Shown here: one piece after another, positions 24,779 to 40,463 of the stretch
Numbering within the stretch: position 1 is the stretch's first letter
Layout of the letters: every line of letters starts with the position of its first letter
IMG/VR virus record: IMGVR_UViG_3300029288_001928
Span: 32,001 to 96,000 of that record
Strand: one strand, 5' to 3'
Source of the DNA: a virus
Lineage: Duplodnaviria > Caudoviricetes
DNA: 64,000 nucleotides
Position numbers and translations under genes: made by a program
The notes under the pieces: generated by a model
What the model was told of the DNA's origin: nothing
Database searches by the model: none
What the model saw: only the letters and a program-made list of their open reading frames with translations

Positions 24779-25453
24779 ATGAACCTAACAGACCGCGTTG
24801 AACAAGCTATCGTCTCTTTCCTAGAAAAAGGAGACGCTTTTACACTCCTTGATATCTCAAATAGTGTAAAAAATGACGGCAATGGATTCGTTCGCCATCG
24901 TGATTGTAGAGAAGAAGCAATCTCTATTCTTCACCGTCTTGAAGATGATGAAGATGAAAATATCGCAGACTATATGTGTACATCAATAATGGTAACTACT
25001 CCAAGAGGTCAAGAATATGCAAGCCTTTATCATAGAGAAGATTTTGACCCAGATGACTATGTAAATAAATGCCAAGTAGCACTAAAACCCTCACAAATTC
25101 AAACTCAAACCATTAAACCAGTTACACCTGTACCATCTACTAATCCAACAAACCCATCGCCTATATTCAATACCTCAACATTTAAAACAAACGCCCATGT
25201 GTATAAACTACTAAAACCAATGCGAAAAGACGGATCTATAGAAATACCTAAGAGTCTACTAGTTGAATCTGGTCTACTTAATAAAGTGATAGATATAGTA
25301 AACCATCCAAATAGCATAAGTCTTGTACCAGGACAGAGTAGAATCGCAATATCAGGAATGAGAATTTCTAAGACATCACTAGCTAAATCAAATTTGGAAT
25401 CTGACGACATAATTGAAGCAGCATCTTTCACCGATAAAATAGTTCTAGCATGA
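24779..25453 (+). CDS. Hypothetical protein, possible C-terminal AbrB-like domain
   Basis: Promoter and RBS; DGSIEIPKSL motif. Confidence 0.45.
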   Translation: MNLTDRVEQAIVSFLEKGDAFTLLDISNSVKNDGNGFVRHRDCREEAISILHRLEDDEDENIADYMCTSIMVTTPRGQEYASLYHREDFDPDDYVNKCQVALKPSQIQTQTIKPVTPVPSTNPTNPSPIFNTSTFKTNAHVYKLLKPMRKDGSIEIPKSLLVESGLLNKVIDIVNHPNSISLVPGQSRIAISGMRISKTSLAKSNLESDDIIEAASFTDKIVLA

Positions 25454-25533
25454 AAAAGTAGTTGACAAGTATAAATACAATGTTATAATAGTCTCATCAT
25501 TTGAAAATTATATATTGTGGATGACATTCTTAC

Positions 25534-25613
25534 TGCGGTGTAGAGAAACGGCCATCTCATTACCCTCATAAGGTAAAGAAAGCACCTAAGCGGTTCAACT
25601 CCCGCCACCGCAT
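25534..25613 (+). tRNA. tRNA-Met(CAT), atypical variable and T region
   Basis: tgcggtg/caccgca acceptor; ttacc-ctCATaa-ggtaa. Confidence 0.7.
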
Positions 25614-25616
25614 CTA

Positions 25617-25750
25617 TGCACGAATGCCAGAAAGGTTTACATCTATCAGGAAGACGAGGCGCGTGGTTCAAATCCCGCTTCCCCCATTAACGGGGGGAAT
25701 AGCTTAGTGGTTAGAGCGCGAAAAATAGACTTTTCAATTTTTGTCGTGCA
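25617..25750 (+). ncRNA. Y RNA (YrlA-like) 1 with a permuted tRNA-like domain
   Basis: Terminal stem tgcacGAATGC...ttttgtcgtgca; internal T-arm, closed acceptor (ttccccc/gggggaa), then D-arm. Confidence 0.8.
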
Positions 25751-25757
25751 TTTTTAT

Positions 25758-25831
25758 GGTCCCATCATATAACAGGCTAGTATACCAGATTTTCATTCTG
25801 GCAATCGTGGGTTCGACTCCCCGTGGGACTG
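25758..25831 (+). tRNA. tRNA-Glu(TTC)
   Basis: ccaga-ttTTCat-tctgg. Confidence 0.85.
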
Positions 25832-25839
25832 CTATTTAT

Positions 25840-25912
25840 GCCCCTGTAGCACAACTGGAAGTGCAAGTGTTTTCTACACACTAGGTTGCATGTTCAAATC
25901 ATGCCAGGGGTG
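25840..25912 (+). tRNA. tRNA-Arg(TCT)
   Basis: agtgt-ttTCTac-acact. Confidence 0.85.
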
Positions 25913-25914
25913 CT

Positions 25915-25975
25915 AACACGAATGCTGGAAAGTTTACATCTTCAAAAACTAAACTTTCTAAATTTTTGTCGTGTT
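25915..25975 (+). ncRNA. Minimal Y RNA 2 (Ro-binding stem only)
   Basis: aacacGAATGCtggaaagtttacatc...taaactttctaaatttttgtcgtgtt. Confidence 0.7.
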
Positions 25976-25994
25976 TTTTGTCATCCACAAACCG

Positions 25995-26022
25995 AAAGAC
26001 TCTCTTTTGGAGAGTCTTTTTT
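25995..26022 (+). terminator. Intrinsic terminator of tRNA cluster 1
   Basis: aaagactctc-ttttg-gagagtcttt followed by Ts. Confidence 0.85.
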
Positions 26023-26050
26023 GTTATAAATAATTTAGAGGTATTAACTT

Positions 26051-26911
26051 ATGAAAATATTATCATTAAATGGTGGAGGCTCACTTGGATATTGTACTGC
26101 AATATTTCTAAGAGAGTTAGAGAAGTACATAGGTGTTCCATTAATAGATTATTTTGATATGTTTGCTGGTGTATCAACAGGGTCATTGATTGCTGCTGCC
26201 TTAGCATCTGGTAAGACAGTAAATGAGATATGTTGGATGTATGAGAATGGTATTCCCAAGATTTTTAAATCACCAAAGTCATTAGTAATGCGTATATTTA
26301 AACCCAAGTTTAAAATAGATGGATTAAAGCAAGTAGTTACTGATATATTTGGAGATTCATTAATATCTGAGGCTAAAAAGAGGGTATTAGTTAGTGCAGT
26401 AAAGATTACAGGGGGTGACATTAAGCCGAAGTTTTGGAAGTCATGGGAAGACAGGGAATTATTTAGAAACGTTTTACTTGCAAGTTGTTCTGCTCCTACA
26501 TATTTTGAGCCATACAATATTCATGAAGATTATTATATAGATGGTGGGATGGCGACTAATAATGTATCAATGTGTGCAGTAGCAGATGCAGTTAAAATGG
26601 GTGTATCTTTAAACTCAATAAAGGTTTTGAACATTGCGTGTTTATCGCGGTGGTCATATGAGTTTAAAAATGCTAAGGGTTTGCAGGGGTTAAAGGATTG
26701 GGCATCTGCTGCGCCGATGGTAGCGACCACATCATCTGAACCATTAGCAGTTTATCAATGTAGTCAGATATTAGGTGAGAACAAGTTTAAACTTATTCAA
26801 TCGAAGATTGATTTAGACATAGATTCAGTAGATATAGATAGGTTAAAGGAGAGAGGATTTTGTTTATTTCCTCATTTACGAGAGACCAAGTTATTTTTAG
26901 AATCTATTTGA
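26051..26911 (+). CDS. Patatin-like phospholipase
   Basis: LSLNGGG, GVSTG (catalytic Ser), ASCSAPTYF, DGG. Confidence 0.9.
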   Translation: MKILSLNGGGSLGYCTAIFLRELEKYIGVPLIDYFDMFAGVSTGSLIAAALASGKTVNEICWMYENGIPKIFKSPKSLVMRIFKPKFKIDGLKQVVTDIFGDSLISEAKKRVLVSAVKITGGDIKPKFWKSWEDRELFRNVLLASCSAPTYFEPYNIHEDYYIDGGMATNNVSMCAVADAVKMGVSLNSIKVLNIACLSRWSYEFKNAKGLQGLKDWASAAPMVATTSSEPLAVYQCSQILGENKFKLIQSKIDLDIDSVDIDRLKERGFCLFPHLRETKLFLESI

Positions 26912-26955
26912 CTTTTGATATTTTTGGTTTAGAATAGTTGAGAAAGGTATAATTT

Positions 26956-28422
26956 GTGAAAACAAAAAAAGAAGTTTTAGAAAAATATTTTGGGTTTAAC
27001 TCATTTAGACCTGGGCAAGAAGAAGTAATTGATGAAGTTTTAAATCCCGATAATAAGGGGGTAGTATGTGTAATGCCTACAGGTGGTGGTAAAAGTTTAT
27101 TATATCAAATACCATCAATATTATTAAAAGGTACATCAATAATTGTATCTCCGCTGATATCATTGATGAAAGATCAAATAGATGCATTACATAAAAATGG
27201 TATAGATGCAGCATTTTATAATTCTTCACAATCTAAAAAGGAACAAGAATCTATTATTAATTCTTTAAATTTGGGATTAGTAGATTTATTATATGTATCG
27301 CCAGAAAGATTTGCAGATCAATATTTTTTAGATATTTTAAAAGATATGGACATTGCTTTATTTGCAGTGGATGAGGCCCATTTAATATCTCAACAGGGGC
27401 ATGATTTTAGACCATCTTATAGAAAATTAAAAAGAGCAATATTAGAATTAAATCCGAAGTCTGTAATTGCTGTTACTGCGACTGCGAAGAAAGCAGTACA
27501 AGATGACATTTGTATTCAATTAGGAATCCCATTAGCAAAAAGATTTATTAGAGGGTTCTTTAGAGATAATATATGTTTAGAATTTGTTGAATCGCATAAA
27601 GGATCAAGATTTTATGATATTGCGAATGAAGTAAAACATAGTGTAGAATATGGAATGAAAACTGGAATAATTTACACACAAACAAAAGATGATGCAGTAA
27701 TGATTTCAGAAATATTACAGAAAGATTTTAAAATACCTTGTTTATATTATCATGCTGGTTTATCTGATGATAAAAGAAAAGAAATACAGGAAGAATGGAT
27801 TATAAAAGGTGGAATAATTGCCGCTACTACTGCAATGGGAATGGGTATAGACAAAAAAGATGTAAGATTTGTATTTCATTGCGGTTTACCTGCATCAATA
27901 GAAGCATGGAGCCAAGAGTGGGGTCGTGCAGGTAGGGACGGTAATGAATCTGTTGCTAAAACATTTACAGACGTTGGCTCGGATAGTTTTTTACAAAAAT
28001 TTTTAATTAATTTATCATTGCCACCTATTAGTGAGATTAAAAAGTTTTGGTATTGGTTATATAATGAGACAAAGCACGATTTGAATTTAAAAATGACACA
28101 AGAAAAAATGCAAGAAAAGTCAAAGTGTAAATTTGTAAGTGGTGCATTATCCGTATTAAAATATAATAACATGGTTGAGACTATAAAAAGAGGAGAATAT
28201 AGAGTTAAAGAAAGATATTCTTCTATTAATGTTATTGATGAGTTAGTAGATTGGAAATCACATTTAGATAGAAGAAATTCCAAATTAGAAATGTTAAAAC
28301 AAATGATTGATTTATCATGTAACAATAGTGACTGTAGGATGTTACAAATATTAGAATATTTTGGTGATACATCATATACAAAACCATGTGGTAGATGTGA
28401 TGTTTGTCAAAAATCTATTTGA
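26956..28422 (+). CDS. recQ: RecQ-family helicase
   Basis: FRPGQEE, MPTGGGKSLLYQ, VDEAH, MGIDK, GRAGRDG, C-terminal Zn site CR...CGRCDVC. Confidence 0.92.
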   Translation: MKTKKEVLEKYFGFNSFRPGQEEVIDEVLNPDNKGVVCVMPTGGGKSLLYQIPSILLKGTSIIVSPLISLMKDQIDALHKNGIDAAFYNSSQSKKEQESIINSLNLGLVDLLYVSPERFADQYFLDILKDMDIALFAVDEAHLISQQGHDFRPSYRKLKRAILELNPKSVIAVTATAKKAVQDDICIQLGIPLAKRFIRGFFRDNICLEFVESHKGSRFYDIANEVKHSVEYGMKTGIIYTQTKDDAVMISEILQKDFKIPCLYYHAGLSDDKRKEIQEEWIIKGGIIAATTAMGMGIDKKDVRFVFHCGLPASIEAWSQEWGRAGRDGNESVAKTFTDVGSDSFLQKFLINLSLPPISEIKKFWYWLYNETKHDLNLKMTQEKMQEKSKCKFVSGALSVLKYNNMVETIKRGEYRVKERYSSINVIDELVDWKSHLDRRNSKLEMLKQMIDLSCNNSDCRMLQILEYFGDTSYTKPCGRCDVCQKSI

Positions 28423-28467
28423 CTTTTAAAATCTAACCTGTAAAATATAATTAAAGGAGTCATAAAA

Positions 28468-28896
28468 ATGACAGATTTATCATTTCCAGCAGAGTTAATA
28501 GAAAAAGTAGAATCAGACAATAAAGATGAAAAACCATTAATTACGTTAAAAAATGTAAATATGGTAGAATTTATTAAAGAGATTTTAAAAGATGAATTGG
28601 TAGAAAAATTTCTTTCCAATACTGATGTATTAGATATGTTTGCACGAAGAATTGGTGTAGAAGGTCTGCTTCGTACTTATAATAAGGAAGAAGTATGTGA
28701 TAAAATCACATGGGATTATATTAAAGAATATTTCTTAGATCATATTGAATCATCTGATATTCTTGATTATATAGGTTGGGAAACTGTATCTAATCATTTT
28801 AAGGATCATATTGATTCTGTAGAACCTAGTAAAGAAGATATAAATAATGGTGGATCTATATTGGAGAAACTGAATGCAAATAAGGGAAAAAATTAA
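28468..28896 (+). CDS. Hypothetical protein
   Basis: ORF with promoter and RBS AAGGAG. Confidence 0.55.
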   Translation: MTDLSFPAELIEKVESDNKDEKPLITLKNVNMVEFIKEILKDELVEKFLSNTDVLDMFARRIGVEGLLRTYNKEEVCDKITWDYIKEYFLDHIESSDILDYIGWETVSNHFKDHIDSVEPSKEDINNGGSILEKLNANKGKN

Positions 28897-29596
28897 ACAA
28901 ATATTAGAAGAAAATTATAAAAGTTTAGTAGGTACTTTTGGTGAAAAGCAAAATAAGGGGAAAATGTATCTTCGTAGAGAAGATGCAAAACGAAAGAGAA
29001 AAGAACGAGCAAAAGATAAATCTTCAAATAAAATAGTAGAAAATGAAGATTGTGTCGATCCAAAAGAAATAGTTAAACAACAACGCAGAAATCTCAAAGG
29101 GGGGTTAAGACTAACTCCTCTTGAGACGTTTGCTGCAAAATTAATCTATTATATAGAAACAAAAAAACAAAAACATATAATAGAAGCAATAGAATTAATG
29201 GAAGATTATCCAAAATTAGGAAAATATGTTAAAGAACAAAGTAAAAAAATACTTCCTAAATATGAATTCTGTGTTTATGCTGGTAGAGAACGTTTAGATG
29301 AAGAAATAGGTCAAATATCACAAAGATCCGATGGTGATTATCATAACTGGACACTTTCAAAAGAAAGTGTTAAATATGTATTTAATGAAAGTGAATCTCC
29401 ATATACAATGGAGTGTAAAATAGTTCCAGATGATGTTATAATATACATTCCCGCGTTTACACAATTAATGGAAAATGTTATCCTTGAAGGATTGATAGAA
29501 GAACCATCAAAAAATGTAATCAGAGATGCAAAAAAACAAGAAGAAATTATCCTACCTGGAAAATATAATGAAGGATATATTATAGGAGTTAATTAG
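28874..29596 (+). CDS. Hypothetical protein
   Basis: ORF. Confidence 0.5.
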   Translation: MQIREKIKQILEENYKSLVGTFGEKQNKGKMYLRREDAKRKRKERAKDKSSNKIVENEDCVDPKEIVKQQRRNLKGGLRLTPLETFAAKLIYYIETKKQKHIIEAIELMEDYPKLGKYVKEQSKKILPKYEFCVYAGRERLDEEIGQISQRSDGDYHNWTLSKESVKYVFNESESPYTMECKIVPDDVIIYIPAFTQLMENVILEGLIEEPSKNVIRDAKKQEEIILPGKYNEGYIIGVN

Positions 29597-29598
29597 CA

Positions 29599-29958
29599 AT
29601 GAGTATAGATAATATGCATAAAGCATTTGAAGGCTGGAAAGCTATTAAATCTGGTAAGCGTTCAGTAGAACCACCACAACCAAAAAATGATGTTGATGAT
29701 CAAAAAATAACACCAGAATTAAAAAGAAAACTTTTAATGGAAGCACAAAAAGAAGCAGATAATGCAATTGAAGATCCTGCAAAACATTTAAGAAATGCTT
29801 ATAAACAAAAAATTCAAGCAGAAAAAGCCTCAAAAACTGTTAAACTGGACCCACCAAAAACATTAATGCTATTGTGTGAAGTATCAGAAAAAGGTGGAAA
29901 AATCCTGTCAGTCGAAGAAGCAGGATTTAACGTATATAAAATAACATATATAATATAA
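29599..29958 (+). CDS. Hypothetical protein
   Basis: ORF with RBS. Confidence 0.5.
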   Translation: MSIDNMHKAFEGWKAIKSGKRSVEPPQPKNDVDDQKITPELKRKLLMEAQKEADNAIEDPAKHLRNAYKQKIQAEKASKTVKLDPPKTLMLLCEVSEKGGKILSVEEAGFNVYKITYII

Positions 29959-29967
29959 GGATTTTAA

Positions 29968-30333
29968 ATGGCACAAGAACGATTCGATAGTACATTTAGA
30001 GTAGGTGATGCGGTTACAATCATTGTAAAAGTAAAACCATATATTGATGTAAGTTTACCCCCATCAGCAAATGATTATCGTAGAGTATCATGTGTTAAAA
30101 TAGCAATTTATGATCCTCAAGAAGAATTAGTAGAAGATACAAGAGAAAATCCAAGAGATATGTTACCTGTTCCAAATAGACCAGGATGGTATTATTATAG
30201 ATATCAAACAACACCTGATATGGAACAAGGAGTATATACTGCAATTGCAACTGCATATTGTAAAATAGATACACAAGTATATCAAAATAGAAATGTACAA
30301 GAGTTTAGACTTGTAAATGATGGGATAGCCTGA
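29968..30333 (+). CDS. Hypothetical Ig-like beta protein
   Basis: VGDAVTI...IYDP...GWYYY.Y...GVYTA pattern. Confidence 0.45.
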   Translation: MAQERFDSTFRVGDAVTIIVKVKPYIDVSLPPSANDYRRVSCVKIAIYDPQEELVEDTRENPRDMLPVPNRPGWYYYRYQTTPDMEQGVYTAIATAYCKIDTQVYQNRNVQEFRLVNDGIA

Positions 30334-31085
30334 TGGCACTTTACGATAAAACTGATAATTATTCCAATTTATGTCCAGATGGTCCATCTGGTGAAACAAG
30401 AAGTGAAGTAAATCACGTTCTTGAAATAAATGAATCTCATTCAGATAACTTTTTATTAGTAATTCCACGATTACCAGTTGCGAGATATTTAAGTAGTTAT
30501 TTTAGTGAAATAACTAATCCTAAATATTTTTTTGATACTCCTGCTACATCAGGAACATCTGGTACTTCCAGTACACCAGATATATCAACATGCTCATCTG
30601 CATCTGTTACACAAGATAAAATTAGAAGAGAAGAAAATCTGGATATTACAAATTTCAGATTATATATTTCTGGATGCACTATGCCAGATGTTACTATAAA
30701 TCCAGTAACATTAGGTACACAATTTGCAGATATTAATAGAGCATCAAAAATACAATTTGGTGATTTAACGACAAATATGCAAATTAGCGAAAACTTTATA
30801 AATTATAATGTAATATTATTCTGGATGTATGCTCTCCATAACCCACAAGAATATAATAAACTATTCGGTAGACAAATGATCCAAACATTCTTTACGGAAA
30901 TTCATCTAATAGTTACAAATAACCATAGAGAAAAAATAGCAGAATTTAAATTCATAGACGCATTTCCTTCAACTATGGGCGGTCCTCAATTCGATTATAA
31001 AAACGCAGATAAAATAAATACAGCAGTCACTTGGAAACATTCTGGTATGCAACCATGTGATAACTTTATTCTAAAATACGTTTGA
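30333..31085 (+). CDS. Tail completion/sheath stabilizer (T4 gp3-like)
   Basis: MPDVTI...KIQFGDL...ENFINY..I..WM...FKFIDAFPST. Confidence 0.65.
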   Translation: MALYDKTDNYSNLCPDGPSGETRSEVNHVLEINESHSDNFLLVIPRLPVARYLSSYFSEITNPKYFFDTPATSGTSGTSSTPDISTCSSASVTQDKIRREENLDITNFRLYISGCTMPDVTINPVTLGTQFADINRASKIQFGDLTTNMQISENFINYNVILFWMYALHNPQEYNKLFGRQMIQTFFTEIHLIVTNNHREKIAEFKFIDAFPSTMGGPQFDYKNADKINTAVTWKHSGMQPCDNFILKYV

Positions 31086-31094
31086 TTTTTATTT

Positions 31095-31478
31095 GTGAGG
31101 ATATATAATAATACTATGACAGATAGATCAAATTGTAAATTCGCATTAATAAAAAATCTAGATTCTACTACTGTAGTAAATTCTGATGGATCTACTATTA
31201 AAAAAACAAAAAAAGTAATACAAAAAATTGACGAAAATGGCCAACCTATGTTTACTATCCAAGAAGTAACTGTAAAAAAAGGCTGTAAGTGTAAAGGTAA
31301 TCAAACTACCGAAATAGTACAAAAAAAAGTCCCTGTTACAGAAGAAATATGGGTCGAAGAAGTCGTATCACATCAACAAGTGTCTGTAGAATCAGGACTT
31401 ATAATGTGTAAACTATACGGAAAAGTAAAACGAACCTTCTGCGATAAATGCTCTACCTTCAAACCTAAACCATCTTAA
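31095..31478 (+). CDS. Hypothetical Cys-containing protein
   Basis: ORF. Confidence 0.45.
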   Translation: MRIYNNTMTDRSNCKFALIKNLDSTTVVNSDGSTIKKTKKVIQKIDENGQPMFTIQEVTVKKGCKCKGNQTTEIVQKKVPVTEEIWVEEVVSHQQVSVESGLIMCKLYGKVKRTFCDKCSTFKPKPS

Positions 31479-31588
31479 AAAAAGTAGTTGACTTTTAATT
31501 TCGACCTGTTATAATTGATCCCAGACAAAAGAAAAACTTTTCGGAAACGAAAAGAACGAGTATAAATAAAACCTAGAGGGAACAAAAA

Positions 31589-31708
31589 ATGACTTGCTTA
31601 TCTCTGAATACAAAGTATAATAAGCAAAATATGGCACCAAAATATTGCCATATTACATCCCTCTCCGTCGATTCATTTAGTGATCGTATTGGAGGGATCC
31701 AGAGGTAA
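31589..31708 (+). CDS. Putative 39-aa leader peptide of the tRNA array (MTCLSLNTKYNKQNMAPKYCHITSLSVDSFSDRIGGIQR)
   Basis: GAGGG RBS at 31576; downstream of two promoters; final codons overlap the antiterminator strand. Confidence 0.6.
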   Translation: MTCLSLNTKYNKQNMAPKYCHITSLSVDSFSDRIGGIQR

Positions 31709-31730
31709 GTAGGAATACATAGAGATTCCG

Positions 31731-31761
31731 AAAGCCTCTGGGAAACCCCAGAGGCTTTTTT
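31731..31761 (+). terminator. Intrinsic terminator/attenuator upstream of the tRNA array
   Basis: aaagcctctggg-aaac-cccagaggc-tttttt. Confidence 0.9.
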
Positions 31762-31847
31762 AATGGTCTTTTACAATTATATATCGTGGAATATAATAAA
31801 GGTTAAACCCCTCTTGGATAGGGTAAAATCTATCCAAGAGATTTTTT

Positions 31848-31942
31848 GGAAACGAGTTAGATATCGGTTCGCTAAAACGATTTGCTAAATCGTGTGTCGT
31901 TCAAAAAAGATCGGCATGGGAGTTCGACTCTCCCCGTTTCCG
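31848..31942 (+). tRNA. tRNA-Ser(GCT)
   Basis: acgat-ttGCTaa-atcgt, long variable arm. Confidence 0.85.
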
Positions 31943-31949
31943 CTTATAT

Positions 31950-32035
31950 GGAGAGTGATCTATACGGCGGTCTGTAGAACCGTTGCTTTTAATATGTATA
32001 GCGGCTAGCGATGGGTTCAACTCCTACACTCTCCA
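31950..32035 (+). tRNA. tRNA-Tyr(GTA) lacking a D-arm, 8/4-like (possibly a pseudogene)
   Basis: ggagagtg/cactctcc; gcggt-ctGTAga-accgt; only about 9 nt where the D-arm should be. Confidence 0.6.
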
Positions 32036-32042
32036 ATTTTAT

Positions 32043-32120
32043 GGGACAGCATGACCAAGGAAGGGCGAACTATTATGAATTACTTAATAGTTGTGTCGGG
32101 TTCGATCCCCGACTGTTCCA
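32043..32120 (+). tRNA. tRNA-like RNA with Ala identity (G3:U70) and no canonical anticodon loop
   Basis: gggacag/ctgttcc-a; intact T-arm; 7-bp anticodon stem with a 9-nt loop. Confidence 0.55.
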
Positions 32121-32126
32121 ATATAC

Positions 32127-32205
32127 GGAAGTGAGGCCGAAGTATCCGAGGGGCCGGTCTTTTAAACCGGACGATTAGTGAGTGAAAGACTCACCACTTC
32201 CACCA
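32127..32205 (+). tRNA. tRNA-Lys(TTT), atypical T-loop, encoded CCA
   Basis: ccggt-ctTTTaa-accgg. Confidence 0.8.
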
Positions 32206-32210
32206 TTTAT

Positions 32211-32282
32211 AGCCCTGTAGTGTTAATGGGAGCACATTTGATTGTTACTCAAAAAGTGGGGGTCCGAATCCCTCTGGGGCTG
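32211..32282 (+). tRNA. tRNA-Asn(GTT)
   Basis: tttga-ttGTTac-tcaaa. Confidence 0.75.
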
Positions 32283-32288
32283 TTACAC

Positions 32289-32362
32289 AGGAATGAAGCA
32301 AAACTGGATTATGCACCAATTTCTTAAATTGGGGAAAGTGGGTTCGACTCCCACCATTCCTA
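32289..32362 (+). tRNA. tRNA-Lys(CTT)
   Basis: ccaat-ttCTTaa-attgg. Confidence 0.8.
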
Positions 32363-32395
32363 TTATATACACTTGCAGAGTTAGATAAAGTATAA

Positions 32396-33661
32396 CTAAA
32401 TATTACTTTTATCTTGATTCTTGGTGAGTGGGACTCTAAACTCCACTCTGTTAAGATCAAAGAAACCAGATTCTAACCAGTAGAATCCTTTTCGGTTCCT
32501 TTGTTCTCTACGCAATTCCCAAGGAATGTCCGGTAATTCTATTTCATGATTGAGTGCAGCATTAAGATCAGAATCAATCTCACTTCCACATTCTTTACAT
32601 TTGTATAGTTTACTTTTTCTTTGTGACTTACGCACCATTCCGCAACATGAACATCTTTGACTACGATAAGTACAACTTTGCTCTTTGACATGGACCCCAT
32701 GTAATTCGCAAGTTGATAGTAACTTATCTCTGATCAAAGTGTTCGTCCAATGAGACATTAACCTTGAAGTTTTTGACTTAAAGTTAATGTTCCAAACTTT
32801 CTCTAAATTTACTTGTTTTACTTCACTTAAATTTAATCTATTAATTGACCAATTAATAAAATTCTTTCTTTCTTGTTGTTTCTTTTGGAATCTCTTACTT
32901 CCTTTTTTACATTTACTCAAACTTAACATTATAGAATCAAGTGACTTACCATGAAGATTAGTTTTTGGTGGGACAATTCCATTTGAAAGAGTAACTACAT
33001 CTTTCTTACCTTGGTCACAACCAACCACAATTCCATTTTGTTTCTTTTCTACTTTAGTTTCCCAACGAAAGTTTATCCAGTTTTCATTAAGTAAGAACGA
33101 ATTCTTAAGTTCCCAATCTTTATATTTTTTATTATGTTTATGTAATTTTACTGGTAATTTTATAAACCCATAATCTTTACCAATGGACTTTAATCTTACG
33201 AAGTAATTAAATTCACCTTCTACCTTTTCAATGTCAACACATTTAGAACTTAATTCTGGATTGAGTTTACTTATATCTGGTTTTTGTGGTTTATTTTGTT
33301 CTATTTTCTTTTCTAATTGTGAATTTGGTGTTTTCTCCCACTGATACAATCTCTTTCTTTGCTTTTCAACCGAGGCACCTATAATCCCACAAAGTTGTGT
33401 AACAAGTGAACTTAATGCTCTTGCTGATAAGTTTGTCTTTATATCAAATGAGTTATAATCAATGAATTTTGGATGATCTAATTTATTCTCATTAACATTA
33501 AATTCATAATTTTTATTTTTAACTTCCCACTTGTATCCATTTTCCCATATTTGATCAAGAATCAAACCACTTACTCTACGATATTCACTAATAAACTCTT
33601 GAAGTTTATTCAACTTATTAGTATTACTGAATTTAAGAGTATGGTTAGTCGTTCTGATCAT
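32396..33661 (-). CDS. tnpB: TnpB/Cas12f-like RNA-guided nuclease
   Basis: RuvC-I VGCDQG, RuvC-II NLE, Zn finger CSCCG..CKECG, RuvC-III DSDLNAALN. Confidence 0.9.
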   Translation of the reverse strand: MIRTTNHTLKFSNTNKLNKLQEFISEYRRVSGLILDQIWENGYKWEVKNKNYEFNVNENKLDHPKFIDYNSFDIKTNLSARALSSLVTQLCGIIGASVEKQRKRLYQWEKTPNSQLEKKIEQNKPQKPDISKLNPELSSKCVDIEKVEGEFNYFVRLKSIGKDYGFIKLPVKLHKHNKKYKDWELKNSFLLNENWINFRWETKVEKKQNGIVVGCDQGKKDVVTLSNGIVPPKTNLHGKSLDSIMLSLSKCKKGSKRFQKKQQERKNFINWSINRLNLSEVKQVNLEKVWNINFKSKTSRLMSHWTNTLIRDKLLSTCELHGVHVKEQSCTYRSQRCSCCGMVRKSQRKSKLYKCKECGSEIDSDLNAALNHEIELPDIPWELRREQRNRKGFYWLESGFFDLNRVEFRVPLTKNQDKSNI

Positions 33662-33807
33662 TTTATTTCTACTTTAACCTCTTTACAATTTTTTCCAATA
33701 TACCTAAGATATTCACTAACAGAAACAAACCCAAATTTCTTGGCATTTTCTTCAATTAGTTTTTTATCTTCTTCATTAATTCTAATCATTATTTTTAAAT
33801 CTTTCAT
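33658..33807 (-). CDS. Ribbon-helix-helix (CopG-like) protein, 49 aa
   Basis: MKDLKIMIRINEEDKKLIEENAKKFGFVSVSEYLR; RBS GGGAG; stop overlaps the tnpB ATG. Confidence 0.7.
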   Translation of the reverse strand: MKDLKIMIRINEEDKKLIEENAKKFGFVSVSEYLRYIGKNCKEVKVEIK

Positions 33808-34017
33808 TTGTCTCCCATTCGCTTATACGTTTATTTATATCAAGAAATTATGATTTTGAAAATTATTTTTCTCTTGACTTAATTTGAGATCATTATATAA
33901 TAAAAAGTAACACTTAGTAAAGGATTATATGAAATGTTATTAGACGGTGGGAACGTCGGGAAATTTCCAAAATTTCTGTCTTTTAGTTGGTCCGATTCCA
34001 ACCAAGTGTGCTTTTAT

Positions 34018-34091
34018 ACCTCCATAGTTTAAGCGGTTTAAAACATAATCCTGTCACGATTAAGATAGGGGTTCAAATCCCCTTGGGGGTG
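34018..34091 (+). tRNA. tRNA-Asp(GTC)
   Basis: taatc-ctGTCac-gatta. Confidence 0.85.
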
Positions 34092-34092
34092 C

Positions 34093-34587
34093 TTATATAT
34101 TTGTAGGTATTTTAAAAAATTTAGATTTTGTCATACCACGATTATCCATATCAATCACAAGAACATTTTTAATAGTATTCAATAAATCAGATACTCTTAT
34201 AGGTTTGTATATAATAGCATCTGCACCAATACTTACAATTTTTTCGTATGGTATTTGTAATTCTGAAAGTGCCATTAGAATTACAGGAGTTTCATTTTGG
34301 GCCTGTCGAATACAGTCAATGAAATTTTCTGTTTGATTTTCTGGTAAAGTTGTATCCAAAAATATAATATCAAAATCTTTATGTTCGTCTAAAATATTTT
34401 TTAATGCTTTGTATGAATCTTCAACGATTGTTATTGTGCATGGAGAACAATATCTTTGAATTGTTTTTTCGACATATTTGCATAATACATCATTGTTATC
34501 AATTATTAAACAATTTAAGTTATTTTCGACAATTTTATGTCTTTCGGTTTTTTGATTATGATATTCTTTTGTATCTGTATTATCCAT
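34093..34587 (-). CDS. Single-domain response regulator (receiver)
   Basis: LIIDNN, FDIIFLD..LP, PVILM, GADAIIYKP. Confidence 0.8.
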   Translation of the reverse strand: MDNTDTKEYHNQKTERHKIVENNLNCLIIDNNDVLCKYVEKTIQRYCSPCTITIVEDSYKALKNILDEHKDFDIIFLDTTLPENQTENFIDCIRQAQNETPVILMALSELQIPYEKIVSIGADAIIYKPIRVSDLLNTIKNVLVIDMDNRGMTKSKFFKIPTNI

Positions 34588-34606
34588 AAAGGTATTTATA
34601 TTTTAA

Positions 34607-34680
34607 ACCCTCATCGTCCAATTGGTTTAAGACATTTGATTGTCGATCAAAAAATACGGGTTCAAATCCCGTTGGGGGTG
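34607..34680 (+). tRNA. tRNA-Asp(GTC)
   Basis: tttga-ttGTCga-tcaaa. Confidence 0.8.
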
Positions 34681-34687
34681 CTTTAAT

Positions 34688-34759
34688 GCTTCCGTAGTAT
34701 AAAGGATAGAACGATTGGCTACGGACCAGTAAATGCACGTTCGAATCGTGCCGGAAGCG
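34688..34759 (+). tRNA. tRNA-Arg(ACG)
   Basis: attgg-ctACGga-ccagt. Confidence 0.85.
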
Positions 34760-34766
34760 ATATTTT

Positions 34767-34837
34767 GCTGGATTCGTATAGTGGCAATACTGCTGTTTCG
34801 TACTCAGCAAACGGGTGTTCGATTCATCCATCCAGCA
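34767..34837 (+). tRNA. tRNA-Thr(CGT)
   Basis: gctgt-ttCGTac-tcagc. Confidence 0.75.
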
Positions 34838-34841
34838 TAAT

Positions 34842-34938
34842 GGTGCTTTGTCAGAGTGGACGATTGAGATTGCTTGGAAAGCAGTTGGGCGGGGGCATAT
34901 ACCTCGTTCCGTGGGTTCGAATCCCACAGGCACCGCCA
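34842..34938 (+). tRNA. tRNA-Ser(GGA), encoded CCA
   Basis: attgc-ttGGAaa-gcagt, long variable arm. Confidence 0.9.
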
Positions 34939-34992
34939 GTTTTTTCTTGATCTTGATTTTAAACTCGTTAAAATATAGTCAGGAGATTTGTT

Positions 34993-35511
34993 ATGGGATA
35001 TCTTAATGATAAATCAGTTTATTTATGTGGTGCTATGCAAATGACATCAGATGATGGAATTGGTTGGAGAGATTATATAACCCCTACTCTAAAAAAATAT
35101 GGATTAAATATTTCAGACCCAACAAGAAAACAATGTCATAGCGCACAAGAAATAGGAGATAATAAAGAACTATTTAAATCATTAAGACTAAAACAGGATT
35201 TTAAACAACTTAAAAAAGTATTTATGCCTGTTGCAAGATGGGATCTACGATCTGTAGATAAAGCAGACTTCCTAATTGTAGCATATGATCCATGTATTCC
35301 TACTGTCGGGACAATTGATGAAATAGTTATAGCTAATATGCAACGTAAACCAATCCTAATGAAATATGATCCAAAGAAAATGGAACAATTTAGTTCTTGG
35401 ATGGTTGTAAGAATTGAACCGGAACATATGTTTCCAACATGGAAAAAGATGTTTAAATATCTTGACTCAATAGATAAAGGAAATATAGATCCTGATTATT
35501 GGACATTATAA
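34993..35511 (+). CDS. Nucleoside 2-deoxyribosyltransferase-like protein
   Basis: VYLCGAM...WR...DP...DLRSVDKADFLI...GTIDE. Confidence 0.75.
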   Translation: MGYLNDKSVYLCGAMQMTSDDGIGWRDYITPTLKKYGLNISDPTRKQCHSAQEIGDNKELFKSLRLKQDFKQLKKVFMPVARWDLRSVDKADFLIVAYDPCIPTVGTIDEIVIANMQRKPILMKYDPKKMEQFSSWMVVRIEPEHMFPTWKKMFKYLDSIDKGNIDPDYWTL

Positions 35512-35512
35512 T

Positions 35513-35602
35513 GGAAGCGCAATCAGATTGGCGACTGAACTTCTTTCGAAAAGAAGCGAGCGAAATATATTAGCCTTGGGGGTTCGACTCCCTCCGCTTC
35601 CG
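35513..35602 (+). tRNA. tRNA-Ser(CGA)
   Basis: cttct-ttCGAaa-agaag. Confidence 0.85.
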
Positions 35603-35608
35603 ATATAC

Positions 35609-35679
35609 GCTGGATTAGTAAAGTGGTATTACAATTGTTTTGTACTCAATAGGCGTGGGTTCGATTCCTGCATCCAGCA
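35609..35679 (+). tRNA. tRNA-Thr(TGT)
   Basis: attgt-ttTGTac-tcaat. Confidence 0.8.
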
Positions 35680-35687
35680 TACAATAT

Positions 35688-35764
35688 GGGCACGTAGTTT
35701 AACGGTATTAGAATTTTTCTCTGATAAAGAAAAGACGAAGGTCCGACTCCTTCCGTGCCTACCA
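35688..35764 (+). tRNA. tRNA-Ile(GAT), encoded CCA
   Basis: tttct-ctGATaa-agaaa. Confidence 0.85.
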
Positions 35765-35778
35765 CTATAAATATTAAT

Positions 35779-36024
35779 ATGATTAATTACACGGTATATT
35801 TATTGAAAAACAAAATAAAAACAAAATATAGATGTAAACAAGTTTATATTGTCGCAAATAGTAAAAATGAATTGAGTTTAAAAATATATAAACTAATTAA
35901 AGATAGTAAAGATCTGTATTATGGAACAATATTCTTCGAATATCCATATTACTACGTAACAGATAAATATGGAAAATTATTAGTTAAAACAGAAACAAAT
36001 ATAGAACCAATGATTGTAAACTAA
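35779..36024 (+). CDS. Hypothetical protein
   Basis: ATG just after the late promoter at 35766. Confidence 0.4.
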   Translation: MINYTVYLLKNKIKTKYRCKQVYIVANSKNELSLKIYKLIKDSKDLYYGTIFFEYPYYYVTDKYGKLLVKTETNIEPMIVN

Positions 36025-36099
36025 TCCCTTGTGTAGCTCACCGGAAGAGCAGTTGGTTGAAGCCCAACGTGAAAGGAGTTCGACTCTCCTCCAAGGGAC
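36025..36099 (+). tRNA. tRNA-Phe(GAA)
   Basis: gttgg-ttGAAgc-ccaac. Confidence 0.8.
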
Positions 36100-36133
36100 T
36101 TAATATAAATATATGTGTAGTAAAGGAATAATT

Positions 36134-36604
36134 ATGAATGTCGCATTCGATTTTGATATGACTCTCATGTTTCCCGTTAATATAATAAATAGAGATGATC
36201 CAGAAATAGGATCTCCTAATATTGAATTTGTAAATAAATGTAAAAACCATATAAAAAATAAAGATACTGTATTTATTATAACTTCTAGAAAATTTTCAGA
36301 TCTTAGTATAAAACAAATAAATAAATTTTTATCACATAATAATATCAATATTTCAAATACTAATATTTTCCACACAGATGGAAAAATGAGCAAAGCAGAA
36401 TATAGTATAAAAAATAATCTTGATATTTCTATATTATATGATGACGATGGTTTAGAATTGGTAGAAGCAAAAAAATTAAATATTATTCCAATAAATTCAT
36501 TTAATAACGACGCAAAAAACGCTTTTAATAAATTTTATGAAATTGAAGAATCTAAAAAGAAAATTAATAATTTTAAAACATTTTTTAATACTACAAAAGT
36601 TTAA
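36134..36604 (+). CDS. HAD-superfamily phosphatase-like protein
   Basis: VAFDFDMTL, IITSR, K, LYDDD; probable start 36134 after AAGGA. Confidence 0.65.
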   Translation: MNVAFDFDMTLMFPVNIINRDDPEIGSPNIEFVNKCKNHIKNKDTVFIITSRKFSDLSIKQINKFLSHNNINISNTNIFHTDGKMSKAEYSIKNNLDISILYDDDGLELVEAKKLNIIPINSFNNDAKNAFNKFYEIEESKKKINNFKTFFNTTKV

Positions 36605-36607
36605 AAT

Positions 36608-36700
36608 GGAAGGTATTGCCTGTCGGGACAGGATGTTGTCTTGAAAACAAGAAGGGGCGGCACAACCGTCCCTACAGTTCAACTCTGTTGCCTTCCTCCA
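36608..36700 (+). tRNA. tRNA-Ser(TGA), 8/4 fold, encoded CCA
   Basis: ggaaggta/tgccttcc (8 bp), T-stem acag/ctgt (4 bp), ttgt-ctTGAaa-acaa. Confidence 0.8.
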
Positions 36701-36921
36701 AAAAATTGTATTTGACTTTCAATTATCTCTATATATAATATAGATGTATTTGATAACTATATATTGCGGATATAATTCTGTACCCCCTAAGCTTAATTTT
36801 AGTAGAAATACTAAAATGCTAAAACCAGTCAGTAGAAATTCCTCTACGAATTTAAGTGCGGTCTCTAAACATGACGATGGCACAAATGGGGTTTATTGGC
36901 CTCATAAGGTGAGGCACCTTT

Positions 36922-36995
36922 CAGTGTGTGGCGAAACTTGGCATCGCGTTTGGTTTGGGTCCAAAAGATTGGAGGTTCAAATCCTCTCACACTGA
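36922..36995 (+). tRNA. tRNA-Pro(TGG)
   Basis: tttgg-ttTGGgt-ccaaa. Confidence 0.85.
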
Positions 36996-37109
36996 TAATA
37001 AACGCTGGTAGTATCTACTACTAGAGGGCAAGACCGTAAGCAGGTCGGAAACCAACGAAGTGCGGTCGGATTAAGTGCGGTGTGGGGGCAACTTAATCTT
37101 TCAATTTTT

Positions 37110-37179
37110 TGGGGAATGCTAGAATGTTTACATCTTTTTTGTCAAAAGAACCAATTAGACATTCTAATTTTTGTCTCCA
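37110..37179 (+). ncRNA. Minimal Y RNA 3
   Basis: tggggAATGCtagaatgtttacatc...tagacattctaatttttgtctcca. Confidence 0.7.
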
Positions 37180-37186
37180 TTTTCCT

Positions 37187-37259
37187 GGCCATGTGGTGAA
37201 AAGGCTTATCACGTTTTCCTCATAAGAAAAAATTTCTGGTTCGATTCCAGATATGGCCA
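37187..37259 (+). tRNA. tRNA with anticodon CAT (Met or Ile2)
   Basis: ttttc-ctCATaa-gaaaa. Confidence 0.8.
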
Positions 37260-37260
37260 T

Positions 37261-37400
37261 GTAGCGAATGCTAGTGAGGTTTACATCGAATGTTAATCGG
37301 CTGGTCGTAGGTTCGAATCCTACCAATAATAACGAAAGTTATTGTTGTAGCTCAGTTGGTAGAGCAGCAAAAAAATAGACTTCACAATTTTTGTCGCTAC
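37261..37400 (+). ncRNA. Y RNA (YrlA-like) 4 with a permuted tRNA-like domain
   Basis: gtagcGAATGC...tttttgtcgctac; T-arm gtagg-ttcgaat-cctac, closed acceptor with a GAAA loop, D-arm tagctcagttggtagagc. Confidence 0.85.
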
Positions 37401-37408
37401 TTTTTTAC

Positions 37409-37482
37409 GGGTGCGTAGACCAACTGGCAGAGTCTTATCGCTTAGAACGATAAAAGTGGGGGTTCGAATCCCTCCGCACCTA
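37409..37482 (+). tRNA. tRNA-Leu(TAG), short variable loop
   Basis: tatcg-ctTAGaa-cgata. Confidence 0.8.
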
Positions 37483-37485
37483 TAT

Positions 37486-37563
37486 GTCGGATGACATTAT
37501 CCAAGTGGACTTGGAGGCTGTCTGCAAAATAGTCCGTTATTGGTTCGATTCCAACATCCGACT
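37486..37563 (+). tRNA. tRNA-Cys(GCA), 8/4 fold
   Basis: gtcggatg/catccgac-U73; T-stem ttgg/ccaa; gctgt-ctGCAaa-atagt. Confidence 0.75.
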
Positions 37564-37632
37564 TTATATTGACTATTGACAACCATTAAAACTATGTTAT
37601 AATATTATCATTGCAAAAAGGAGCAATTATTT

Positions 37633-37857
37633 ATGATTCGTGTAGATAGAAAGCCTAATGAACCAATTGATAAACTTCTTCGTCGCTTCAAAAAGCGGTG
37701 CGAAAAAGAAGATCTTATCAAAGATATGAAAAAAATAGAATACTATGAATCCGATAGCGTTCGTAGACGTAGAGCAAAAAGAAAATTAGAAAAACGTCTA
37801 GAAAAAGAAAAAACAGAAGGAACAAGTCCAAAAGAAGACTTCACTTTTTGGGAATGA
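37633..37857 (+). CDS. rpsU: Ribosomal protein bS21
   Basis: NEPIDKLLRRFKKRCEKE..IKDMKK.EYYE..SVRRRR. Confidence 0.9.
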   Translation: MIRVDRKPNEPIDKLLRRFKKRCEKEDLIKDMKKIEYYESDSVRRRRAKRKLEKRLEKEKTEGTSPKEDFTFWE

Positions 37858-37873
37858 AAATTCCCAAACATAT

Positions 37874-38155
37874 TCCCAAGTAGCTCAATGGTCGAGCAAT
37901 CGGCTGTCGGTGGCAGCTTTTACTGGAAACAGTAATCGAAAATTCTCCAAATTAGGGGGACTCTTAACAGGTTATGCTGATGATTATCCCTAGCCAAGCA
38001 TGAGTGTAAAAACTCAAGGCGTGTGTAGAGACTAGAAGGAGAACACCTTTAAACTGGTGATGGTATAGTCCAGACCACAAACTTACATTAGGTAGCGAAA
38101 GCTATAGTGGTATGTAACCGATAGGTTGTAGGTTCGAATCCTACCTTGGGAGCCA
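37874..38155 (+). tRNA. tRNA-Asn(GTT) with a group I intron (exons 37874-37907 and 38115-38155)
   Basis: Joined exons give atcgg-ctGT|Taa-ccgat, tcccaag/cttggga, encoded CCA. Confidence 0.9.
37908..38114 (+). other. Group I intron, 207 nt, no ORF
   Basis: P1 gctgt/gcagc with U.G at the splice site; R element gtagagacta; S element ggtatagtcc; terminal G. Confidence 0.88.
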
Positions 38156-38201
38156 ACGAGAAGTTTGATGGTTTTACTCAAAAACAAAAATCATCATTTA
38201 T

Positions 38202-38274
38202 GCGAGATAGGTGTTTAAAGATACATATCTGGTTTCCACCCAGAAGTAGTTGGGGGCGTTACCCACATCTCGCT
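38202..38274 (+). tRNA. tRNA-Gly(TCC), atypical T-loop
   Basis: tctgg-ttTCCac-ccaga; gcgagat/atctcgc-U. Confidence 0.75.
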
Positions 38275-38276
38275 TT

Positions 38277-38340
38277 TAGCACAAATGCTATTGAGTTTAC
38301 ACCTGTTAAATGTAAAAACTCAGTTATTTTTGTTGTGCTA
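38277..38340 (+). ncRNA. Minimal Y RNA 5 (divergent)
   Basis: tagcacAAATGCtattgagtttacacc...aaactcagttatttttgttgtgcta. Confidence 0.6.
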
Positions 38341-38347
38341 TTTTCAT

Positions 38348-38420
38348 GCCGCTATAGCTCAATTGGCAGAGCAATTATTTTGTAAATAATAGGTTCCAGA
38401 TTCGAATTCTGGTGGTGGCA
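38348..38420 (+). tRNA. tRNA-Thr(TGT)
   Basis: attat-ttTGTaa-ataat. Confidence 0.85.
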
Positions 38421-38427
38421 TACTTAC

Positions 38428-38501
38428 TGGCCTGTAGTTTAACTGGTTAAAACGTCAGACTTTGAATCTGAATAGTGGGTGTTCGACTCGCCCCAGGCCA
38501 A
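38428..38501 (+). tRNA. tRNA-Gln(TTG)
   Basis: tcaga-ctTTGaa-tctga. Confidence 0.85.
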
Positions 38502-38529
38502 TATAAATATAATCTTTACAAGGGATTAT

Positions 38530-38709
38530 ATGTTTACAAAATATATTTTATACTTATTAAGGTGGCAATTATCGACGCCGATATTAGCGATAGTTTTAGT
38601 TTTGTTGAGTTCGATATCTCCTATAATATCCACAATAATAGCCAATTTAATTGGTGGATTGATATTTTTTTGGATAGACCGGAAGATATTTTCAGTTAAG
38701 AAGGTATAA
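38530..38709 (+). CDS. Small two-TM membrane protein
   Basis: YLLRWQLSTPIL...ANLIGGLIFFWIDR; late promoter and RBS. Confidence 0.6.
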   Translation: MFTKYILYLLRWQLSTPILAIVLVLLSSISPIISTIIANLIGGLIFFWIDRKIFSVKKV

Positions 38710-38717
38710 ATATTAGT

Positions 38718-39803
38718 ATGAATTTTAAAACATTTTACACTGAGTCAATAGAGAAGAAGATTAGTAATAAGGGTGATTTCCAAGTTAAGGGGAATCGCAT
38801 GTTATTTCAGAGAGTTGGTCCAGTTAGTTCTCAATATCAGAGCAATACGAAAGCACCGGAGAGAAGGGGTATATGGGCTTTTCCATGGCCGGTGTTTGAT
38901 TATTTTTTTGTATCTGGTAGTTTTTCTGATCCATCCAGGCGTATGCCTAAAAATACGTGGAATGTAAGAATTTCGTCTGAAATGGTAGAAAAACTAAAAG
39001 CAATTTTATTTGAAAAGGAAAAGCAATTAGGTATAATTCGGGGAAAGTTTATAAATTTTAAAGATCGTTATAAAGATTCAAGAGACAAGGAATTAAGTAA
39101 AGAGTATGATAATATTGAGTATGTTATAGAGACATTAAAGGATATTATAAAAGAACGGCATTCAAATGCGTATGATTTAGAGAGTTTTGGGATAGAAGTA
39201 GAAGAAAAAGAAGCACCTACTATTAAATTATCTAAAGAACAAATACGTGAATTAGAGCAGACCAAGAAAAAGCTTGATAGAAATTTAAAATCATTAAAAG
39301 ACAAGATGGTAGATACTGATAGGATTCGGGTTGAGTTATTTAACAAGATGAATATGTCAAAAAATACAGACAATGAAGAGAAGGACAAGAATACATATCA
39401 TAATTTTTTACGTTCATCTGGATATCACAAGATTTCAACTGATATACAGAATCTTGGGGATAAGATATCTGATATAGAAGATTTATTATCAGACAAGGAA
39501 TCTGCTAATAAGAGAAATGTTCACACATTTTTTCATGGAGAAAAATTTAATAAGACTTCTCAATTTTGGTATAGTGGGGTTATATATGCTCATTTTGCAC
39601 CAAAAGGAAGAGAAAATGAAATGATCAATAGTTGGTTTAAATATGATACCGTATCGGAATATTTAGAACAATTAAAGAAAAATTTATTTGTACACGAAAA
39701 GTTGGATGGTAAATTTTATAAATATGCTGTAAAGAATATTGGGCATGGTGATTATGGATTAGCATCAGATCATTTAGAAGTATTTTTACCAAATATAAAA
39801 TAA
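38718..39803 (+). CDS. Hypothetical late protein
   Basis: N-terminal MNFKTFYTE motif; late promoter. Confidence 0.6.
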   Translation: MNFKTFYTESIEKKISNKGDFQVKGNRMLFQRVGPVSSQYQSNTKAPERRGIWAFPWPVFDYFFVSGSFSDPSRRMPKNTWNVRISSEMVEKLKAILFEKEKQLGIIRGKFINFKDRYKDSRDKELSKEYDNIEYVIETLKDIIKERHSNAYDLESFGIEVEEKEAPTIKLSKEQIRELEQTKKKLDRNLKSLKDKMVDTDRIRVELFNKMNMSKNTDNEEKDKNTYHNFLRSSGYHKISTDIQNLGDKISDIEDLLSDKESANKRNVHTFFHGEKFNKTSQFWYSGVIYAHFAPKGRENEMINSWFKYDTVSEYLEQLKKNLFVHEKLDGKFYKYAVKNIGHGDYGLASDHLEVFLPNIK

Positions 39804-39976
39804 TTAAATATGGTACAATACAAAGATGAAAGACATATTTTCTCTTGTATGGATATGTTATATAGAAAATAATTTTGCTGGTATACAATTATATAGTGCA
39901 TTATATTCATCATTTAAATTTGATGAAATGAGTTTAAATTTACCAAAGAACATATTAGAAAAGTGTTATAGTTTAA

Positions 39977-40050: not shown

Positions 40051-40055
40051 TATAT

Positions 40056-40130: not shown

Positions 40131-40137
40131 TAATTAC

Positions 40138-40375: not shown

Positions 40376-40381
40376 TTTTAT

Positions 40382-40458: not shown

Positions 40459-40463
40459 CTCAA

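Follow-up and report, generated by a model that had tools for sequence, protein, structure and literature searches.

A possible ribosome-dependent transcription attenuator in the 5′ leader of the main tRNA operon of an uncultured giant phage

The 5′ leader of the main tRNA operon of an uncultured giant phage contains a short open reading frame (ORF), a terminator-like hairpin and RNA segments predicted to compete for the same partners, and we give about an even chance to the reading that this stretch is a ribosome-dependent transcription attenuator. According to this reading, transcripts from an early promoter (P1) and from a late promoter (TATAAATA) would carry a 39-codon ORF, whose last codons and stop codon constitute segment B. 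The partner of B would be either segment A at the 5′ end of the ORF or segment C in the 5′ arm of the terminator. With no ribosome on the transcript A:B would form and C would be left free, so that transcription would stop at the terminator hairpin (C:D). A ribosome at the stop codon would cover B, which would also result in termination. If a ribosome lags or stalls within the ORF, A would be kept from B and B would hold C, which would permit read-through to the boxA-like leader and the tRNA genes. The net output would be more array transcript when translation is slower. Translation of the ORF, termination at the hairpin, the dependence on ribosomes and any link to tRNA supply are what we infer from these arrangements; the quantity sensed might be tRNA supply, translation in general, or nothing.

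The stretch of DNA that was analysed (64,000 nucleotides, in the following the window) corresponds to bases 32001-96000 of the 133-kb IMG/VR virus record IMGVR_UViG_3300029288_001928, which has an estimated completeness of 62% and a G+C content of 30%. A landfill metagenome was the sole sequencing run (DNA) that contained the leader stretch. The source phage is a member of an uncultured giant-phage clade known from metagenome contigs. Among GenBank phages, neither a DNA match to window positions 31000-32400 nor a match to the sheath-like protein was found. Of the 27 tRNA genes in the window, some form a small cluster (cluster 1, 25534-25913) and the others a long array (31848-40536), which begins with a tRNA-Ser(GCT) gene at 31848-31943. 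The features described below for the leader, the head of the array and its two clamp arms are all located on the + strand.

P1 (31488-31515) is a sigma70-type promoter, TTGACT-16-TATAAT with an extended TG, which matches the consensus at 11/12 positions. Its upstream and −10 context (AAAAAGTAGTTGAC...TGTTATAAT) matches that of the promoter of tRNA cluster 1 at 25462. The late-promoter-like motif TATAAATA follows at 31561-31568, 20 nt 5′ of the leader ATG. In its distribution the motif resembles a real late promoter of this phage: an ORF of at least 80 aa begins 0-60 nt downstream of 26 of the 47 copies, whereas control octamers of equal composition reach 1-17 of 52-66 copies. A Shine-Dalgarno sequence, GAGGG (31576-31580), is placed 8 nt ahead of the ATG at 31589. 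Shine-Dalgarno sequences are common among the genes of this phage, and the order of TATAAATA, 20 nt including AGAGGG, and ATG is the usual arrangement of its late genes. The leader ORF (31589-31708) has 39 codons and ends with a TAA at 31706-31708. The original prediction had proposed a sigma70-like promoter at 31488, a late promoter at 31561, a GAGGG ribosome binding site and a 39-codon ORF at 31589-31708, and these were all recovered. A short ORF with start signals near the promoter, as expected for a leader-peptide attenuator, is thus present, and it is longer than in dinucleotide shuffles (P=0.075). No homologue was found for the leader peptide, which was searched as a 41-aa in-frame extension. 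Within the ORF, RNA folding revealed a 9-bp hairpin (31628-31654) and a branched hairpin with an 8-bp base helix (31657-31698).

Between the ORF and the tRNA genes lies an intrinsic terminator, T1 (31730-31761). It consists of a 13-bp stem (arms 31730-31742 and 31747-31759), an AAAC loop and a run of six U residues, with a folding energy of about −23 kcal/mol. A strong terminator had been predicted at 31731-31761, and the stem at 31730-31759 together with the U6 run agrees with it. T1 was the most stable of 21 terminator-like hairpins in a scan of this record and the loci of its relatives. It was missing from the consensus scan, probably because the longest stem absorbs 4 of the U residues. 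Segment B, CCAGAGGU (31699-31706), overlaps the stop codon and is a near-copy of the terminator 3′ arm, and segment C, GCCUCUGG (31734-31741), is part of the T1 5′ arm. The complementarity of the last leader codons to the terminator 5′ arm, which had been noticed before, was confirmed as a pairing of CCAGAGGU with GCCUCUGG over 8 bp including one G-U (−15.7 kcal/mol; P=0.006 against shuffled leaders in the window). Among the 21 terminators it was the best upstream complement and a clear outlier (mean −5.6, sd 3.4 kcal/mol). The B:C helix encloses an inner hairpin (31712-31729) formed by GGAAU and AUUCC at 31712-31716 and 31725-31729, as had also been described. A further complement of 16 nt (31708-31723 and 35289-35304) was no better than chance.

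In addition to these pairings we found a helix between A (31593-31606) and 31700-31713 that is absent from the original prediction. It comprises 14 bp (−20.6 kcal/mol; P=0.005 in the window); alternatively, A can pair locally with 31614-31626. The pairings A:B, B:C and C:D therefore represent the classical 1:2, 2:3 and 3:4 topology of trp-like attenuators. For simulating translation, transcripts that ended before the 3′ arm of the terminator were folded with a ribosome footprint of 28 nt at successive positions of the ORF. B:C was formed at most footprint positions and was lost when the footprint lay over the last codons or the stop, in line with the earlier claim that a ribosome at the stop codon masks the antiterminator. 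In these predicted folds antiterminator and terminator are mutually exclusive, a ribosome at the end of the ORF hides the antiterminator, and the same holds for two distant relatives described below. Stepwise folding of the growing transcript, a check that had been suggested together with the prediction, was performed without a ribosome and led from the local A hairpin to A:B and finally to A:B plus terminator. An anti-antiterminator (1:2) pairing which gives termination without translation is thus predicted for the window. Full-length equilibrium folds kept the terminator every time. Since the terminator always wins at equilibrium, any switch must be kinetic, as in known attenuators.

Downstream of the U-run of T1 follows a boxA-like sequence, GGUCUUUUACAA, and then the motif TATATATCGTGGA (together 31765-31790), which represents the standard leader of the tRNA operons of this phage. 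A boxA-like sequence at about 31765 had been part of the original prediction and was found there. Compared to the boxA consensus GYTCTTTAANA (PMC5725501), GGTCTTTTACA matches 8/10 specified positions of a consensus that is gamma-proteobacterial and may not be that of the host. The motif TATATATYGYGGA has exactly three copies in the record, all on the + strand and before tRNA genes (25509, 31778, 36758). In the copies at 25509 and 36758, 19 nt separate its start from the −10 element of a canonical promoter, and the boxA-like stretches CAUUUGAAAAU and UAUUUGAUAAC precede it. At 31778 the same leader (UCUUUUACAAU plus motif) comes after the T1 U-run, and P1 is 270 nt upstream. The genome thus has two simpler tRNA operons in which the promoter is followed directly by the boxA-like/TATATATYGYGGA leader. 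On the simplest reading of these sequences, ORF and terminator would be a module inserted between the operon promoter and the ordinary leader of the operon. This place, between promoter and ordinary leader, is the position of an attenuator.

The array is furthermore bracketed by a pair of complementary arms that is absent from the original prediction. The 5′ arm (31786-31804) and the 3′ arm (40609-40627), which starts 73 nt beyond the end of the last tRNA, form a 19-nt complement with one mismatch across 8.8 kb. Around the RNAs of cluster 1 there is a 12-bp pair as well, with a sequence of its own (25514-25527 and 25978-25991). Because the sequences of such clamps differ and complementarity is kept, pairing of precursor ends is a better explanation than transposon ends. 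Any transcription start from P2, a promoter-like site behind T1 (see below), would lie downstream of the 5′ arm; if the clamp acts in RNA, polymerase must therefore pass T1.

No close relatives turned up in a search of IMG/VR with the tail-tube protein, and profile searches with this protein and the sheath protein led to the same six or seven records. Near-complete relatives with tRNA arrays were limited to two distant phages (G003, 332 kb, and G004, 263 kb; 50-51% tail-tube identity). The head of each main array is occupied by a TTGCNT-17-TATAAAT promoter and a stretch of 150-180 nt; next comes a hairpin, stronger than any other on the + strand of the array region, and after it tRNA-Ser. The head stretch contains an ORF of 49 codons in G003 and of 38 codons in G004. 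In either case the stop codon borders on a 7-8-nt segment that can pair with the 5′ arm of the hairpin, with a small hairpin in between; the B and C segments are GCCCCAGG and CCUGGGGU in G003, and GGUCCCA and UGGGACC in G004. In transcripts cut before the 3′ arm, a B:C helix of 7-8 bp around a small hairpin appeared in the folds of all three phages, and only a footprint over the final codons or the stop removed it. The pairing was better than in shuffles for the window and the two relatives (P=0.006, 0.009 and 0.046; Fisher 2e-4), and the longest ORF at the three heads exceeded dinucleotide shuffles with P=0.075, 0.013 and 0.051 (Fisher about 0.003). Since the three head sequences differ, B, C and D have changed together. 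With only three heads, which share architecture but not sequence, formal covariation statistics are impossible, and a three-sequence MAFFT alignment of the switch was left out of the pair counts since it is not structure-aware. The search upstream of the relatives' tRNA arrays, also suggested at the outset, thus found an ORF with its stop at an antiterminator in both phages. The geometry of ORF and terminator is kept at three main-array heads (n=3), with no closer relative that has the leader.

The A:B helix was significant neither in G003 nor in G004, and the leader peptides of the three phages show no mutual likeness. In G003 the ATG overlaps the predicted −10 element, and an in-frame GTG with AAGGA still leaves 40 codons. 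The G004 ORF is without a Shine-Dalgarno sequence, as are most G004 genes. The main array of G003 parallels the window in its order of promoter, ORF, hairpin and ACAAGTATATATCTGCGG, while a small cluster of G003 (265.5 kb) has a promoter and then ACAAGTATATATCTGTGG. A perfect 16-bp clamp, again of different sequence, surrounds the G003 main array (L066 96-111 and 8299-8315); no clamp was found in G004. ARAGORN reported a tRNA with the anticodon TCA in the G004 array (L067 849-924); it was labelled SeC and may decode UGA.

Nine contigs of closer relatives (54-73% tail-tube identity) have protein genes and no tRNAs after the homologue of the 127-aa gene that precedes the leader (31095-31478), and they contain nothing resembling the leader. 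Right behind this gene, at 31478, synteny is lost with all closer relatives (L004-L009, L069-L071). Their next genes (80 aa, 170 aa, DUF2201) were not found in the 133-kb record, and the proteins upstream of the G003 and G004 heads had no useful relatives. A pattern search of IMG/VR with CTTTTACAANTATATATC gave 25 matches, which except for G003 were all due to chance and lay mostly, as it appears, inside protein-coding sequence. A search for relatives with a terminator pattern matched an unrelated terminator.

The original prediction regarded the leader as codon-diverse and as a general sensor in which a stall at any codon would allow read-through. Its counts were correct (29 distinct codons and 18 amino acids, without Glu and Trp). 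Compared to real genes, 29 codons gave P=0.015 and 18 amino acids P=0.09. Stop-free shuffles of the ORF, however, contained 27.9 ± 1.9 codons and 16.9 amino acids (P=0.38 and 0.33), and the diversity in the G003 and G004 ORFs likewise equalled that of stop-free shuffles; the diversity is thus that of the base composition and not above chance. GC-ending codons which are uncommon in this genome are indeed used (GC3 0.38 vs. 0.157 in genes). The rare ones (TGC, CTG, TCC, CTC, GTC, GGG, ATC, CAG, AGG) fall within segments A and B or the two internal hairpins, that is in RNA stems, and do not serve as a sign of tRNA sampling. The absence of Glu and Trp is likewise uninformative: the leader contains Cys, Tyr and Gly codons, and for the window no phage tRNA-Cys or tRNA-Gly was called, with tRNA-Tyr represented only by an uncalled tRNA-like stretch. 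Neither runs of regulatory codons nor an enrichment of them were detected in the leader ORF. A CAI-like index was 0.44 for the window ORF and 0.40 and 0.50 for the G003 and G004 ORFs, compared to about 0.71 for genes and 0.40-0.44 for off-frame stop-free windows. Codon use of the three leader ORFs is therefore indistinguishable from off-frame sequence, which counts against an attenuator, and a deliberate sampling of the tRNA set by the leader is not supported. What stood of the original interpretation is the idea of a translated leader with an antiterminator at its stop region, for which the geometry in G003 and G004 and the paralogous leaders argue; the sampling of all tRNAs by diverse codons did not hold.

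The same codon data bear on the possibility that the switch is real but set by a trans-acting factor (a protein, a tRNA or other RNA, a small molecule) or by polymerase kinetics, with an incidental ORF. Codon use like that of non-coding sequence speaks for this view. The leader RNA is also far more structured than shuffles (z=−6.5), its two strong internal hairpins are superfluous to the ribosome model, the peptides are not conserved and have no homologue, and the start signals in G003 and G004 are weak or doubtful. Nevertheless, open frames exceed chance length at all three heads, the stop adjoins B in each of them, and the window ORF has a canonical late promoter, a Shine-Dalgarno sequence and an ATG. 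In addition, an Rfam search over 25000-42000 up to E=1 gave no family at the curated cut-off, and a T-box was absent even among the weak matches; a JA03 match on the leader (21.8 bits vs. a cut-off of 44, E=0.29) looks like chance. We consider a switch of this kind unlikely.

Equally to be weighed is a self-contained short unit made up of P1, the ORF or structured RNA, and T1, i.e. a gene for a small RNA or a micropeptide. T1 would then insulate the array from upstream tail-gene transcription, and the tRNAs would be transcribed from P2 and internal promoters. P2 (TTTACA-16-TATAAT, 31770-31797) is a promoter-like site with 11/12 matches that shares sequence with the boxA-like site and with the clamp arm; it may function as a genuine promoter by which T1 is bypassed. 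On the + strand of the array region, sites of this grade are about 16 times as frequent as expected (6 observed vs. 0.38 expected). The promoters which had been named as a possible bypass at 33874, 36712 and 37576 were confirmed and another one was found at 39010; they would supply the array's later portions. With a promoter-like site immediately behind T1, the caveat of a bypass is stronger than originally held. T1 is moreover a textbook strong terminator, and no terminator was found between the upstream 127-aa gene and P1. A short unit of this type, on the other hand, leaves the B:C pairing and its conservation in three phages unexplained. Transcripts starting from P2 near 31804 would omit the boxA-like/TATATATYGYGGA leader and the clamp arm, both of which are transcribed in the two simple operons, and neither G003 nor G004 has a promoter comparable to P2 behind its hairpin. 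In G004 no + strand sigma70-type site with at least 10/12 matches was found between the hairpin and the first tRNA or elsewhere in the array of 27 tRNAs. On balance we regard this explanation as having a low probability. A mere chance assembly, in which an ordinary terminator happens to have an ORF and a complement upstream of it, would fit the modest single statistics (P=0.075 for ORF length in the window, 18 amino acids being not unusual) and is quite improbable, since G003 and G004, the only near-complete relatives, again show ORF, B:C and stop position at the heads of their main arrays, the combined P values are about 3e-3 (ORF) and 2e-4 (B:C), and the control with 21 terminators agrees.

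For the attenuator, the possible supply of the array from P2 and the internal promoters independently of T1 remains a point against it. A second terminator-like hairpin with a U-run (31811-31847; 12 bp, 31811-31840) directly before the first tRNA, which the original prediction had not listed, is left unexplained by the model and also counts against it.

Several other elements were observed in and around the array. Under permissive settings, ARAGORN called a tRNA at 32043-32120 whose 8-nt loop carries a four-base anticodon (atga), and the stretch 31949-32035, called neither by ARAGORN nor by the tRNA model, resembles a class II tRNA-Tyr(GUA). A TnpB-like transposase ORF (421 aa, 32396-33661) lies within the array on the opposite (−) strand. 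Between two tRNA-Asp genes the − strand encodes a stand-alone response-regulator receiver domain (34093-34587; 164 aa, no output domain detected). This protein has no ANTAR domain, and an ANTAR-type antiterminator was therefore rejected. Sub-threshold matches to YrlA (Y RNA-like) were located within the tRNA clusters (37261-37403, 25617-25753, 38278-38342), and a gene for a Ro60/TROVE protein with a vWA domain (46403-48115) lies 6 kb downstream. From these two observations the phage seems to possess its own Ro-Y RNA system.

Phage tRNA arrays are usually viewed as a constitutive supplement to the host tRNA pool or as a replacement for tRNAs destroyed by defence nucleases. If the proposed attenuator is correct, the phage would measure decoding capacity and adjust its own tRNA output by a compact module of about 280 nt, and leader-peptide attenuation would be extended from enzyme genes to tRNA genes. 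A full-text literature search found no description of a translation-coupled attenuator before viral tRNA genes. With somewhat less than even confidence we extend this view to the giant phages of the clade: their main tRNA operon would be under feedback, with a leader ORF that gauges ribosome speed and a terminator that opens when ribosomes are slow, for example when host anticodon nucleases or host shut-off deplete tRNAs. The switch would then be part of a unit resembling an rRNA operon, in which a boxA-like site is combined with a stem formed between the two ends of an 8.8-kb precursor.

Leaders of the rrn type share with the present one the boxA-like GGUCUUUUACAA, here behind the hairpin, and the complementary arms (31786-31804 and 40609-40627) that flank the array; clamps of differing sequence at cluster 1 and in G003 likewise resemble rrn processing stems. 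The boxA-like site differs from the gamma-proteobacterial consensus by two mismatches, and an attenuator upstream of such an element is no part of the rrn layout. T-box riboswitches also take a terminator/antiterminator decision in a leader with an output related to tRNA status. In contrast to these, the leader gave no T-box match at permissive thresholds, showed no specifier loop or T-box bulge, and holds an ORF.

The leaders trpL and hisL and the multivalent ilvGMEDA and thr leaders are leader-peptide transcription attenuators of amino-acid operons. As in the trpL/hisL type, a promoter-proximal short ORF is followed by 1:2, 2:3 and 3:4 regions with an intrinsic terminator, and it is proposed that a ribosome at the stop masks region 2 and a lagging ribosome favours the antiterminator. 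Unlike these leaders, the present one has no regulatory-codon runs and two extra strong hairpins in the ORF, the genes behind it are viral tRNA genes and not those of biosynthetic enzymes, and the 1:2 helix is clear in the window only and not in G003 or G004. Ribosome-mediated attenuators that answer general translation arrest are known from the vmlR leader of B. subtilis (PMC9226507) and the mef/mel leader (PMC4335068). They too combine a short ORF free of amino-acid-specific codon runs with a terminator/antiterminator switch, and are activated by slow or stalled ribosomes. They control antibiotic-resistance genes and respond to drugs, whereas the output here would be a tRNA operon. In kind, the element would thus be a case of leader-peptide attenuation, and its logic appears closest to that of attenuators which respond to a general slowing of ribosomes, rather than to the type that senses a single amino acid.
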